A stretch of DNA of 64,000 nt from Candidatus Bathyarchaeota archaeon (GCA_963733055.1 CAVTBR010000001.1:1248001-1312000); one strand, 5' to 3'; numbered from the stretch's first letter, positions 17,796 through 31,916 are shown. Translations and numbers: made by a program. The notes: generated from the sequence alone by a model not told the origin.

Positions 17796-18711
17796 ATGCC
17801 GACGGTCGTCTGCAAGCAGTGCGGAGCCAAAGTCAGCGACGAATACACCTTCTGCCAGTATTGCCAAACCCCGATTAACGGAAAACCAGCAAAACCAGAG
17901 ACCGGTACAGGGAAGGGAGTTTGTTCAAATTGTGGCGCAAAGGCACGTCAGGGTCAGAGATTTTGCACGAACTGCGGTCAAGCCATGACGATCGACGTCG
18001 AGGAAGTCTTGAACTCCACGTTCAAAATACTCCGCAAAGCACCTCTCATCGTCGTTCCAACGATCATAGACGTTACCTTTTCCACACTTGGTCTAGCGTG
18101 GATTGGTGGACCGTTCTTTGGGCAAAGCGTATCAGGGGAAAGCCTATCGGTTCTCTTAGCAACACTGTGGACTCCTCTGCCTAAACTCCTGGCATTATTC
18201 GTCGTTGGGATATTCCTCTTCCCAATCGTAACAGGGATGTATCCCTCCATGGTCGAAGATGCGTATGATCGAAGAAAGCTTAGATTAGCTCGCACTCTTC
18301 GCAAATCGGTTAGGAAATACCCCTCAGTATTTGCGTCGAACATACTTGTTGGTGCGTTGATTATGCTTGGGTTGTTACTATTCGTGGTTCCCGCGGTTCA
18401 TTGTGGGTGCTTGGTACTATTATGTTGTACCCGCGATCATTCTTGAAGATCGTGGGACGTTAAGCGGTATGTCGGCTAGCAAGAAGTTTGCGCGTAATAA
18501 GAAATGGGCGACGTTCATCATGTTTCTGATTGTCTCGGGAATATCCGTTCTCGGGTCTTATGTTCGCGGAGGGGGGGCGATCTCAAACACTACTGGTATG
18601 GCGCTCTTCATTGTGACCGAATTAGTCTTCGGAGTATTCGCTGGGGTATTGGGGGCGATCATGCCAACGTATACTTACCTATCTTACGCCATGCGACGGT
18701 CAATGAAATGA
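17796..18711 (+). pseudogene. Double-zinc-ribbon membrane protein split by a +1 frameshift
   Basis: ORFs 17796-18446 and 18367-18711 join as ...LFVVPG-FIVGAWYYYVVPAIILEDRG if the C at about 18394 is removed. Confidence 0.7.
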
Positions 18712-27039: not shown

Positions 27040-28380
27040 TTATCTTGTTGGGAAGGGCAGTTTGCCTCCTCTTCCTAGGGCTCCGCCCCTACGTTTCATG
27101 GTTTTCATCATTTTTTTCATCATGTGATATTGGTTGATCATTTCCTTCACATCTCTATCAGTTGTTCCTGAGCCTCGGGCAATTCTTCTGGCTCTGGATG
27201 AGTCGATGAGTTTGGGGTCTTCAATCTCATCCCTGGTCATCGACTGTATAATCACCTTCCACGCGTCTAGTCTCTTTTCGGCGGTTTCCATCGCGTCATC
27301 AGGGATGTTCATCCCTCCAGGTACCATCCCCACCAGTTTCTTCAGCGGCCCCATCTTCCTAACCGCCACCATTTGCTCGTACATGTCTTTCAAGGTGAAC
27401 TTTCCCTCCAGAAAGGCCCTAGCTTTCTTCTGGGGAATCTCGACCTGTGCCTCTCGTACCTTCTCGACTAGGGATTTGATGTCGCCCATGCCGAGGAGTC
27501 GGCCGACGAAGGTGGCGGGTATGAATTGTTCTATGTCGTCGATCTTCTCACCGGTCCCAATGAATTTGATCTTCGCATGCGTCGCCGCAACCGCCGACAA
27601 GGCGCCTCCTCCCTTCGCCGTCCCATCCAACTTCGTCACCAAGATCGACCCAATCCTAGTGCTGTCGTTGAACGCCGCAGCCTGCGACGTCGCGGCTTGC
27701 CCAATCGAAGCGTCTATGGCTAAGATGATTTCATCAGGTTGAATTTGCTTCGCCAGGTCCCTCATTTCGCTCATGAGTTCCGCCTCGTCCTTGTGCCTCC
27801 CCGCCGTATCGACGATGATCAAGTCATACTTCTCGCCCGCAAACTGCTCCATCCCCTTCCGAACAATCTTCAAAGGATCCTTCGAACCCGGTTCCCCGTA
27901 CACTGGGACGGTAACCCTGTCCGCGAGCTGCTTCAACTGCTCAAACGCCCCCGGCCGATACGTATCAGCGCAGATGATCGCCGGTCGTAAACCACGCTTC
28001 TGGTAAAACCGAGCCAGTTTAACTGACGCGGTCGTCTTCCCGGTTCCTTGAATCCCAACGAGCATAACCACCTGTCGCTTACCCAGCTCGATAACCAGTT
28101 TCGCAGGTTCCTCCCCAAGGAATCGCGTCAGTTCCTCATACAGCACCTTCACAACGTGATCGTGGCGGGAAATTCCCGGAGGTAGCTTCTCTTCCAGCGA
28201 TCGCTTCTCGACTGCCTGGGAGATTTGCAGAACGAGGTTTACGTTGACGTCGGATTGAAGCAGTGCTCGTTGAAGGTCGCGTACGAGTTCCTTGACGGCT
28301 TTCTCGTCGACCACGGCCAGCCTGAGCAGTTTCTTAACCGCGTCCCTAAGCGATCTACCCAGACCTTCAGGCGCACTCAT
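27040..28380 (-). CDS. srp54: Signal recognition particle 54 kDa protein
   Basis: 'GIQGTGKTT', 'DTAGR', 'TKLDGTAKGGGALS', Met-rich M domain. Confidence 0.97.
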   Translation of the reverse strand: MSAPEGLGRSLRDAVKKLLRLAVVDEKAVKELVRDLQRALLQSDVNVNLVLQISQAVEKRSLEEKLPPGISRHDHVVKVLYEELTRFLGEEPAKLVIELGKRQVVMLVGIQGTGKTTASVKLARFYQKRGLRPAIICADTYRPGAFEQLKQLADRVTVPVYGEPGSKDPLKIVRKGMEQFAGEKYDLIIVDTAGRHKDEAELMSEMRDLAKQIQPDEIILAIDASIGQAATSQAAAFNDSTRIGSILVTKLDGTAKGGGALSAVAATHAKIKFIGTGEKIDDIEQFIPATFVGRLLGMGDIKSLVEKVREAQVEIPQKKARAFLEGKFTLKDMYEQMVAVRKMGPLKKLVGMVPGGMNIPDDAMETAEKRLDAWKVIIQSMTRDEIEDPKLIDSSRARRIARGSGTTDRDVKEMINQYHMMKKMMKTMKRRGGALGRGGKLPFPTR

Positions 28381-28870
28381 TCAAAACCCGCTCTCGAATC
28401 AAGTTCATGCGTTGTTACCCGTAACCTAAAAGTTCTCTCGGCCCGGCTGATACTCGGTTTAAGAAGACGGGTGGAATGTGTAGAGCTAAGATTTTCCCTG
28501 CCGTGCCCCAATGACTGGTTTGCATTAGAGATCTGTTAGAGGTGAGTTGTGATTGAGCAAGGAAACTTGGGTTGCGTATCCGCCATATTACGTCGCGCCA
28601 CAGTTCTACGCGTACTACACACCCACCCCGGTCGCGTTTGCCGCGGTCCGGCCTAAAGCATACGGCCCATACGGACCCTACACATACGGCCCCTACTAGA
28701 CCCACCGAACACGTTACGACCGCGCAGCGTAGCGCGAGCCGTCCGGCGGGAGAAGATCACCTAAAATTTTCTTATCTAGGTTTTCCATATCAGCTGAAAG
28801 TTCTGCCGACTCCAACTACGAAGAACCATTATGTGCCTTGACGCAGCCTTCAGCACATCGATGACGGAGA

Positions 28871-29430
28871 TACGAAAACGGCACCTTTTTCCCGGAAAGC
28901 GGTGCCGCTTTCAACGGTTTCCATTCACACATGGGTACGGAAAAACGGGGAAAGATTGTATGGGACGGGATCCACCTTTGACTAAGGGGTGTGGTCCACC
29001 CTACGTCAGACCCATTCCTACGGGAAACGAGGGTGTAGCACACGGTGTGCTACGCCGTGATTTTCGCCTGAGAAACGCCCTGAAAACAGGGGTGTAAGTC
29101 ACAGTGACTTACACCATGATTTCGGCAGGAGGGGGGGTTTCTGCTGGTGAAACGCGCACCGATCGAAGCAAGCAGGGAACGAACTGGGACACAGTTCGGC
29201 GGAACTGTGGCGCAGTTGAACCATCAAGTGAGAGTACGGGGAAAAACGAGGGTGAAGGTCACCTGATTTTCCCGCAGAGACACCTCGAAAACACAGCGGT
29301 GGACACAGTGTGGGACACCTTCTTCTTCCTCCCGTGTAGCACATCATGTGCTACACCCTGATTTTTCTCTCATTTGTCCTTGGCCGGAAACGCCCTTTTC
29401 CAGAAAAGTGATCCCGGAAAAGGTGTCTGG
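28871..29430. repeat. Array of palindromes/hairpins in the 1.14-kb non-coding region
   Basis: Palindromes at 28879-28907, 29032-29056, 29091-29115, 29182-29217, 29251-29263, 29334-29356; shared GAAAAC leader and TGATTT trailer on several. Confidence 0.8.
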
Positions 29431-29520
29431 CGTATGCGCTCATGCCATCAGTATAAGTGACGAACAATGGTTAACTCTAATACAGAATGCCTCGAAAAGA
29501 GAAGCCCGAAGATAACATAA

Positions 29521-30165
29521 ATGCCTCTCATTTCTTGCAAAAAATGCGGTTCGAAAGTAAGCGACCAGTATAGCTATTGTACCAACTGCCAATCCCCGCT
29601 TAACGCAGCTCCTGAAAGCAAGCGAGAATTAACGCACAGACCGCCTGGTGATACTCGTCAAGGAGCGCTAGTTGGAGCGCTTGTCGGCCTCATTTACGGA
29701 ATTGTCGGCGCAACCACCGCCTATTTCATTTTTCTTCCCATGATATGGCCCGTTCTTACTTCGCGCTTGACGCAATCGTCTCAGGCTCTAGCAATTCTCC
29801 CAATGATATGGAACATCGTCATGGTGATAGTCATTGTCGGTCTACCGATCATAAGCGTAATCATTGGAGCGGTACTCGGTTTCCTGTTTGTTGTCTTTCA
29901 GAAAAAACTTCCCGGCAGCACGATTATTCGTAAGTCGGTCGCCTTCTCTTTGATTCTGCTAGCGATTGATTTCCTCATAGGAATATCGAGTTTCTTTGTT
30001 CCCAATAGGACGGGTACCCTCAGCGAGGTCGCTGTAGCTAAATTATATTCGCTACGGTTGGTGTCTTACGGGGAGATTCTGGTTGAGTTCCCACTTCTAG
30101 GTTACCTTTTCGGCTACCTTCTATCACGAAGACTCGCACACCAGAAGAAGACCCCTGAAGCGTAA
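29521..30165 (+). CDS. Zinc-ribbon multi-pass membrane protein
   Basis: 'CKKCG...CTNCQ' followed by about 4 TMs; N-terminus homologous to 17796. Confidence 0.75.
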   Translation: MPLISCKKCGSKVSDQYSYCTNCQSPLNAAPESKRELTHRPPGDTRQGALVGALVGLIYGIVGATTAYFIFLPMIWPVLTSRLTQSSQALAILPMIWNIVMVIVIVGLPIISVIIGAVLGFLFVVFQKKLPGSTIIRKSVAFSLILLAIDFLIGISSFFVPNRTGTLSEVAVAKLYSLRLVSYGEILVEFPLLGYLFGYLLSRRLAHQKKTPEA

Positions 30166-31520: not shown

Positions 31521-31916
31521 CTAGACCCATCGGGTACGCAATTCCTTCATCTTAACGAAGTGTGAGTCGTTAGAGACGCAGCTTGCCTTCAGTTGCAGTG
31601 CCGTTGCCGCGATTACGGCGTCAGCCATTGGGACGCGATATCTCTTCCACAAGAGAGCTGCTTCTTTGGCGATCTTCCAGTCAAGATTTGCAATCGTGAA
31701 GTCACGCTTCAGGAGTTCAGTCCGAAGGTCGGCAGTTGCACGGTCCTCCGACTCTAAGCTTAGTTTGTAGAGTTCATAAACGGTAACGCTGGAGACATAC
31801 TTGGACAAGTTGGTGGTAAGTTCTCTTCGAATCCTCGATGCCTCATCGTCGTCACTAGGGTAATAGATTGCGGCAATGAACCGCGTGTCATAGAGGACGC
31901 GTTTTCTACCGCTCAT
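31521..31916 (-). CDS. vapC: VapC/PIN-domain toxin
   Basis: 'LYDT', 'SSVTVYEL', 'MADAVIAATA', 'SNDSHF'. Confidence 0.9.
   Translation of the reverse strand: MSGRKRVLYDTRFIAAIYYPSDDDEASRIRRELTTNLSKYVSSVTVYELYKLSLESEDRATADLRTELLKRDFTIANLDWKIAKEAALLWKRYRVPMADAVIAATALQLKASCVSNDSHFVKMKELRTRWV

Follow-up and report, generated by a model that had tools for sequence, protein, structure and literature searches.

We analyzed a 64,000-nucleotide (nt) stretch of DNA, hereafter the window, which corresponds to positions 1248001-1312000 of contig 1 in the genome of a Candidatus Bathyarchaeota archaeon (G000; a peat-soil archaeon, 2.88 Mb, three contigs, 96% complete). An earlier note on this sequence had pointed to an array of palindromes with fixed flanks in a gene-free spacer. 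Each of these palindromes is a unit in a family of mobile, modular dyad-repeat cassettes that do not code for protein and are specific to the lineage. Our preferred reading, to which we give a probability of about 0.45, is that the cassettes carry candidate recognition sites, pac-like or operator-like, for proteins with a ribbon-helix-helix (RHH)-like part and a coiled-coil part. What we observe directly is the anatomy of the cassettes, their copy number, an insertion polymorphism, their confinement to two sister species, and the identity of unit sequences to the linkers of a gene family.

The spacer occupies 28381-29520 (1140 nt), from the start of the SRP54 gene to the next open reading frame (ORF) of at least 100 amino acids (aa), and contains three types of unit. 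In type A, a GAAAAC..GG flank and a CC-N-TGATTTT flank enclose a single GTG-N5-CAC 11-mer or a pair of them, type B consists of two AACTG-N5-CAGTT 15-mers, and type I2 is a 39-nt palindrome. Across units, the directional flanks, stem base, and GTG..CAC ends stay constant, as does the 11-12-nt spacing. The elements that had been described here (three palindromes, a short unit, fixed flanks, a recurring leader) were all recovered by direct reading and a repeat search, and they exceed chance by a wide margin. Unit A1 (29032-29056, + strand) has 12-nt arms around a 1-nt centre, of which 11/12 positions pair owing to one T:G mismatch, and is flanked by GGGAAACGAG on its 5' side and GTGATTTTC on its 3' side. 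Unit A2 (29091-29115, + strand) is a perfect palindrome with 12-nt arms (12/12 pair) that is also present in the orthologous spacer of the closest relative, G019. The third palindrome (29334-29356, + strand; 11/11 pair) is accompanied by TGATTTTT, and N-TGATTT does follow each of the three. Unit A3 (29241-29273, + strand) is a single 11-mer with both flanks, its core GGTGAAGGTCACC at 29251-29263 retaining AAAAACGAGG and TGATTTTCC as claimed. Another single A-type unit, GGGG-GTGTGGTCCAC-CC (28986-29001, + strand), is kept in the G019 spacer with 85.7% identity over 35 nt, and a degenerate fourth unit of repeat family D1 lies at 29296-29327 (+ strand).

The further hairpins, which had been placed near 28879-28907, 29182-29217, and 29390-29426, are real and lie at 28874-28912 (I2, minus strand, 19-nt arms, 84%), 29182-29217 (unit B, + strand, 16-nt arms, 88%), and 29394-29423 (CCTTTTCC/GGAAAAGG). 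The leader TACG(G)n(A)nCG recurs at 28871, 28936 (28937 in the earlier note), 29019, and 29235, that is four times in the 1140-nt spacer against 46 times on both strands of the 2.88-Mb genome. Perfect palindromes with arms of at least 11 nt and a centre of at most 3 nt appeared in 0/300 mononucleotide shuffles of the spacer; genome-wide, this class comprises nine loci, six of which belong to the present family. The interiors of the three palindromes had been described as differing from one another while staying self-complementary. The window has two independent stems and not three, since palindromes 1 and 3 belong to one sequence family and differ in one compensated innermost pair (C:G to T:A). 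Elsewhere in the genome, we also observe two identical perfect 24-nt palindromes 2.8 kb apart (contig 3, 753315 and 756109), which are possibly the ends of a mobile element.

Units A1, A2, and A3, together with segment S2 (29124-29175, + strand; a G-run plus a GTG..CAC stem) and unit B (29176-29234, + strand; the two 15-mers plus a tail), form a non-coding module of about 250 nt (29017-29275, + strand) that occurs three times in the genome. The other copies are located on contig 3 (398572-398816, 91% identity over 246 nt) and contig 2 (236479-236723, 88% over 252 nt). In all three, homology stops sharply at both ends and the flanks are unrelated. The neighbours are NAD(P)HX-dehydratase-like and PhzF-like genes at one copy and SAM synthetase and HTH-CBS genes at the other, these four names coming from a reading of the translations and not from a family search. 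The copies differ by indels of 1, 2, 7, and 11-13 nt, which excludes a shared reading frame. We had considered the whole module as a decayed gene, and dropped this idea since the indel lengths are not divisible by three; resemblance to coding DNA is limited to the B and I2 parts of the region. A3 on contig 3 shows a recent 12-nt tandem duplication where contigs 1 and 2 have the single unit.

Around ten diverged partial copies were found by searching the genome with a module profile (nhmmer), with pieces at 296, 540, 631, 634, 716, and 1079 kb of contig 1, 65 and 97 kb of contig 2, and 748 kb of contig 3, in which segment S2 is retained. Their contexts have no neighbouring gene in common and include housekeeping genes and a few ParE/PIN genes. 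A partial second copy follows the module directly on contigs 1 and 3. In the window it spans 29296-29430 (+ strand; nhmmer match 1277327-1277407, E 2.9e-5) and includes the degenerate fourth unit, the third palindrome with its TGATTTTT, GAAACGCCCT at 29387, and the last hairpin. The full-unit pattern gives 12 matches at eight sites, all within five loci, and the I2 hairpin recurs at 148337 and 807086 of contig 1 and at 8275 of contig 2. Just upstream of two single A-type units and the I2 copy near 807 kb lies a perfect 26-nt palindrome (contig 1, 806944-806969); this composite array adjoins a ParE-toxin gene and an amino-acid permease gene.

The link between the cassettes and a protein family is provided by the diverged copy at 296 kb of contig 1, which falls within an ORF of 179 aa (296060-296596, minus strand) located directly upstream of, and overlapping the start of, a gene encoding a 477-aa large terminase (Pfam Terminase_6N, E 5e-19; PHROG terminase large subunit, E 3e-40). 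The 179-aa family includes nine proteins (the query and eight homologues) with 23 invariant columns, and the gene family is present in 9/59 family genomes and 11/401 class genomes. The homologue in G014 also adjoins a terminase gene (TerL), there split, and two other homologues sit among host genes. Lying upstream of terL in two genomes, the gene has the place and build usual for a small terminase, and by this analogy it may encode one. The family proteins would combine an RHH-like N-terminus with a coiled-coil C-terminus, a candidate fold suggested by sub-threshold matches; the secondary structure of the 179-aa protein fits strand-helix-helix, although the model has a pLDDT of only 50. The locus itself (L037, contig 1, 294673-296596) holds an intact large terminase and its 179-aa partner among host genes (CopD-like, adenine glycosylase fragment), with no recognisable other virion genes within 7 kb, and looks like an orphan terminase pair.

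The two domains are joined by a linker (codons ~49-70), which is the least conserved stretch of the protein alignment. Unit B is homologous to codons ~49-71 of the 179-aa gene, with 27/30 nt identical (90%, E 5e-5), and I2 is identical at 38/39 nt (97.4%, E 4e-15) to the linker DNA of a paralogue (contig 1, 147926-148501), a stand-alone RHH-like/coiled-coil gene. I2 is antisense relative to the module and opposite to the paralogue's linker. The same B and I2 stretches in genes were recovered by tblastn. The earlier note had named a match with a decayed coding gene as one observation that would speak against it, and in part such a match exists, since the hairpins at 28874-28912 and 29182-29217 match the coding DNA of real genes. 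A linker hairpin or dyad with z of at most -4.1 is present in 6/7 full-length homologues, equivalent to 5/6 distinct ones because G018 and G021 are nearly identical in the linker; in the seventh homologue, the best hairpin is outside the linker.

Type A units also have counterparts in this linker. In the G014 and G018 genes, it carries a pair of GTG-N5-CAC 11-mers 22 nt apart and in different reading frames, which makes them a feature of the DNA that a peptide repeat cannot explain. These 11-mers are preceded by CGAGGG or CAGGGG, like A1/A3 and A2. One other family member has a single 11-mer, another has an I2-type direct repeat, and a pseudogene piece has a B-type pair. Allowing one mismatch, the four 11-mers from the genes have 2, 5, 3, and 8 matches among array 11-mers, compared to a mean of 1.0 for 200 random GTG-N5-CAC words. 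That the dyad keeps to a single linker position in a single gene family suggests that the cis element is built in and did not arrive by random invasion.

We propose that the units are DNA recognition sites for the RHH-like/coiled-coil proteins, pac-like or operator-like, each with two adjacent subsites 11-12 bp apart that could be used in direct or inverted order. Copies of such sites would have been pasted into a few intergenic hot spots and would spread there as the ~250-nt cassette. Inverted duplications among the units would on this view yield the perfect palindromes, with direct duplications making up the other subset. Under this proposal the family proteins would bind the units, the 179-aa protein would act as a small terminase, and the host might draw a benefit or bear a cost.

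Several points weigh against this proposal. The RHH matches are all sub-threshold: NikA-like (E 0.03, 14.9 bits for a cut-off of 27) and RHH_4 (E 0.026) are each found in 3/9 members and RHH_1 (E 0.003) in 1/9, atlas leads for the N-terminus score 0.85-0.88, and the AlphaFold2 model on the nine-sequence alignment is poor (the pLDDT of 50 given above). Neither PHROG nor Pfam names a small terminase, with PHROGs matching 0/4 RHH-like/coiled-coil proteins tested, and no other virion gene was detected among the ORFs neighbouring the G000 terminase pair (0/9), which is why we call the pair a terminase cassette and not a provirus. The connection between A units and genes consists of 11-mers and short flanks, the excess of matches is modest after collapsing the module copies, and the GAAAAC and TGATTTT flanks of the array units were not seen in the genes. 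The constant stem base, the variable stem length, and the changes on both sides of stem pairs, described below, suit recognition of a hairpin as well as of a duplex. Finally, palindrome-correcting mutation by template switching could give covariation without selection.

The distribution of the family is narrow. Blastn with the module against 61 genomes (G000 and 60 relatives) gave matches in four including G000, and the sole substantial one in a relative was in G019 (72% over 167 nt). The strict double unit GGTG-N5-CAC-N-GTG-N5-CACC has five sites in G000, six in G019, one in G022, and two in G025 among the 59 family genomes; it is missing in the other 55, and the control with the reversed pattern found no site in any genome. 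Searching with a covariance model for the unit gave hits in 3/23 genus genomes, with 16 matches in G000, 13 in G019, and one in G022. The linker pattern was found in G019 within the species collection and in five metagenome contigs, and in 0 viral contigs. The viral contig collection also gave no relative of the 179-aa protein (11 pattern matches, 0 confirmed). From these searches, the unit family appears confined to two sister species, G000 and its closest relative G019.

The spacer itself is expanded in few genomes. An ORF of at least 100 aa begins within 139 nt upstream of SRP54 in 18/21 genus relatives, and this distance is 1140 nt in G000, 1114 nt in G019, 1066 nt in G012, and 423 nt in G013. 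An I2-like element is present in the orthologous G013 spacer. In G013, the SRP54, metK, and PhzF matches hold in-frame TAG/TGA stops, which poor assembly, pseudogenes, or recoding could explain. G019 and G000 are closely related at this locus (SRP54 97% identical, adjoining DNA 93%), and the G019 spacer aligns with the window in three short patches only: A2, the unit at 28986-29001, and a 70-nt stretch. The rest is full of GTG-N5-CAC units with other interiors, inverted and direct. Related units are also found in both genomes upstream of PhzF and downstream of AhpC. The array loci are common to the two species, whereas the units in them have been almost wholly replaced.

Insertions are visible at two of these places. 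At the metK locus, the G019 spacer is ~120 nt long, whereas G000 has a 558-nt insert that contains the module and is bounded by 21-nt imperfect direct repeats (contig 2, 236418-236438 and 236997-237017); the non-module part of this insert is unique in the genome. In the window, a lineage-specific insert of 357 nt (28437-28793, + strand) is missing in G019 by blastn against the orthologous spacer and is bounded by 11-nt direct repeats (28426-28436 and 28794-28804). Within this insert, at 28659-28696, CATACGGCCC-type repeats occur three times in a tandem-like row with spacings of 9 and 15 nt, and they are unrelated to the palindrome units.

These data bear on the idea that the arrays are neutral debris, functionless today: decayed fragments of terminase-helper genes and of adjoining viral DNA would have been caught at intergenic sites prone to breakage, then rearranged by slippage and template switching. 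On contig 1, the pieces at 716478-716633 and 1079682-1079849 look like pseudogene remnants of 35-56 residues, and the first of them has 2-3 in-frame stops. The extent of homology varies from copy to copy, microhomology-mediated capture would fit the unequal lengths of the flanking direct repeats (11 and 21 nt), and spacers are expanded in only 4/22 genus genomes examined. Nevertheless, it is always the dyad piece that is kept and not random gene parts, the module borders are sharp and common to three unrelated loci, and the near-identity of I2 to the gene, although an I2-like element is already in the G013 spacer, points to constraint or conversion. We consider debris a rather unlikely explanation.

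Is the recognised form a hairpin, a duplex, or an RNA? The evidence on the first two points both ways. A dyad or hairpin core with directional flanks, as had been proposed, is borne out by the covariance model, which scores 59-69 bits on the + strand and 37-44 bits on the minus strand at six loci. A relative also has units whose stems differ and are still complementary. Among the palindromic units, 98% of cells pair and 5/11 stem pairs are changed on both sides, in a set selected by the very feature counted, as the units were chosen for being palindromic. A survey of double units gave 20 distinct relaxed matches, about three of them spurious. They include three families of pure palindromes (-11.6 to -13.8 kcal/mol) and two or three pure direct repeats (-3.5 to -4.7 kcal/mol), the remainder being made of self-symmetric 11-mers that fit both the palindrome and the direct-repeat reading. 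Direct-repeat units are about as frequent as palindromic ones. The claim that selection acts on structure plus a directional flank, and not on interior sequence, keeps its directional flank, while the preference for structure over sequence is weakened by the pure direct repeats, unable to form the long hairpin, that occur beside the palindromes.

We also considered a family of multi-stem non-coding RNA (ncRNA) genes, or of RNA elements acting in cis, with transcription from the + strand. In favour of it, folding of the module is much stronger than that of its shuffles (z -6.5 on the + strand, -5.3 on the minus strand), T-runs stand behind each hairpin, the covariance model prefers the + strand, and the T:G mismatch of A1, present in 2/3 copies, would be a U-G wobble on the + strand only. 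On the other hand, RNAalifold on six module sequences finds no net covariation (term +1.11; 2/45 pairs compensatory), no TATA-like box was seen inside the module by eye and the flanks are unrelated in the three copies, the direct-repeat units break the stems, and another copy has A-C mismatches that, by eye, suit the opposite strand. The suspicion of a known ncRNA found no support: Rfam 15 gave 0 matches at the gathering score in the 64-kb window, the only matches in 28300-29600 being three at chance level (E 2.2-7.3). The idea of K-turn or C/D-box motifs in the flanks was dropped by eye, because the 5'-flank GA is missing from A2 and from the G019 units. The public sequencing runs listed comprise no RNA run, and the sole match is a soil DNA run with a 0.12 share of words. 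An RNA family is, in our view, improbable.

A selfish, non-autonomous hairpin-forming element of the REPIN, BOX, or MITE kind would account for many of the same observations. An enzyme would recognise single-stranded DNA hairpins together with a directional flank, and the copies in genes would have invaded a linker that tolerates them, much as other palindromic elements insert into genes in frame. Stems vary in length and sequence, whereas their base (GGGTG/CACCC) and the flanks do not change. This agrees with such an element, as do the high pairing and two-sided changes in the selected palindromic set and the share of the genome's perfect long palindromes that falls in the family. The three near-identical modules, their insertion polymorphism, and their ends, which are imperfect inverted repeats of ~13-14 nt by eye, fit as well; several non-coding copies at unrelated sites and an empty metK site in G019 are what is expected of a MITE-type element. 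By contrast, the borders show no target duplication of fixed length, and the 21- and 11-nt direct repeats bound larger and different inserts. There are about a dozen loci and not tens to hundreds, the direct-repeat units fold weakly, as seen above, and the dyad keeps the same linker position in the homologues, unlike random invasion. Blastn and nhmmer with the module found no longer element with the same ends that could be an autonomous partner in the genome. The suggestion of IS200/REP-type substrates for HUH enzymes meets the same difficulty: neither a Y1 (IS200/RAYT) transposase (PF01797) nor TnpB (PF07282) gave any match in the 96%-complete genome (0 each); the PF01797 control was positive in 6/14 genomes. 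We regard a selfish hairpin element as unlikely, while leaving it an appreciable chance.

The remaining classes that had been raised fit less well. A chromosomal replication origin with ORB-like repeats, or an integron-like attC array, would agree with the long gene-free region, the dyad repeats, the G-run beside a GTTTC/GAAAC dyad, and the presence of three copies in a three-contig genome. Cdc6_C matches, however, occur only at 779319-779597 of contig 1 and 415388-415651 of contig 3, so that the distance between module and Orc1/Cdc6 gene is 498 kb on the former and 16.6 kb on the latter, and contig 2 has no such gene. The cumulative GC skew, weak overall, has no extremum at 1277 kb of contig 1, the copy on contig 2 lacks part of the G-run dyad, and the spacer measures only ~60-140 nt in 18/21 relatives. 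For attC-like sites, the genome encodes six tyrosine recombinases, the nearest being 98-150 kb from the modules (at least 98 kb away), and no cassette ORFs were found. Both proposals are very improbable. As stated earlier, the array is not CRISPR, since the units are spaced by 59, 204, and 38 nt and are 63-84% identical to one another. As a separate observation, a perfect 22-nt palindrome at 412717 of contig 3, ~2.7 kb from the Orc1/Cdc6 gene of that contig, may be an origin element.

Among known systems, arrays bound by RHH proteins (omega of pSM19035, ParR/ParG, CopG, Arc/Mnt) have subsites about one helical turn apart that are occupied by cooperative dimers, and the omega subsites work in direct or inverted order. 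Both subsite orders occur here as for omega. Nevertheless, RHH arrays are contiguous repeats of one sequence by a regulated operon, whereas here differing units with conserved linkers occur at few scattered loci, and the RHH fold of the protein is a sub-threshold call. BOX elements of Streptococcus pneumoniae are non-coding, intergenic, and highly folded, and are made of short boxes in fixed order and variable number. The modular build is alike, but there is no sequence relation, and our low-copy units also occur in coding DNA that belongs to a virus-type gene. Rickettsia palindromic elements also sit inside genes. Enterobacterial RU elements and yeast mitochondrial GC clusters are likewise reported as palindromic sequence located both in spacers and, in frame, inside coding regions. 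In contrast to these, the dyads described here keep to one fixed position in one gene family.

The likeness to pac sites lies in a short cis site within a gene beside terL, with look-alikes in the host chromosome, as in P22, SPP1, and their relatives. In P22, the 22-bp pac site is within the TerS gene (PMC9611059), and pseudo-pac sites of the host start generalized transduction (PMC10996546). P22 pseudo-pac sites are chance look-alikes and not organised arrays, whereas the host copies here are clustered in arrays, have added A-run/T-run flanks, and travel as a cassette. In addition, the dyad pairs differ here between gene variants, the gene falls in no recognised TerS family, and binding is putative. 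REP/BIME and REPIN-RAYT systems share with our family the clustering of short extragenic palindromes, doublets forming long hairpins, compensatory changes, and a directional end tag (in part PMC3733652). The same source gives the REP tag as a conserved GTAG or CGTC at one end of the palindrome. In our units such a tag is not general, as GTAG is found within A1 and A5 only, A2 having GTAA and A3 none. They also differ by the lack of a Y1 transposase, the dozen or so loci, the common direct-repeat units, and the archaeal host. In a limited check of the literature, we found no earlier description of these arrays.

Around the spacer, the GC content is 0.51. The left border of the spacer is the SRP54 gene (27040-28380, minus strand; Pfam SRP54, SRP_SPB, and SRP54_N, E 1.9e-70), divergent from the right-hand gene, a zinc-ribbon membrane ORF (29521-30165, + strand). 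Inside the spacer, 0/6 tested ORFs of 75-96 aa matched Pfam. The zinc-ribbon ORF has no counterpart at the G019 locus, where the PAC2 gene is directly next to the spacer, and may have come along with the expansion of the spacer. It is a paralogue (214 aa) of the ORF at 17796-18446 (216 aa), with which it shares an N-terminal CxxC..CxxC start. Further on, a minus-strand ORF of 131 aa (31521-31916) resembles a PIN-domain (VapC-like) toxin by its sequence.

A more far-reaching interpretation, which we find distinctly unlikely, is that the arrays are host-kept collections of candidate pac-like sites of several terminase-helper variants, some of whose genes are absent from the genome. They might serve as DNA decoys that divert viral packaging, or as starts of chromosomal packaging or transfer by the orphan terminase pair, with a quick gain and loss of units that would resemble an immune memory without CRISPR.

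Whatever the function, inverted duplications, as one subset of a repeat family, can give rise to palindromes that covary, which calls for caution in structure-based inference. On the plainest reading, we describe a modular palindromic mobile repeat in an archaeon without the usual transposase partners. If the units were docking sites, this would be a rare instance of organised host arrays made of copies of a virus gene's cis sites, with a possible role in decoy defence or gene transfer. Bathyarchaeia are a very abundant, uncultured group of sediments and peat, and the arrays would then provide a handle on the DNA recognition used for packaging by their tailed viruses.

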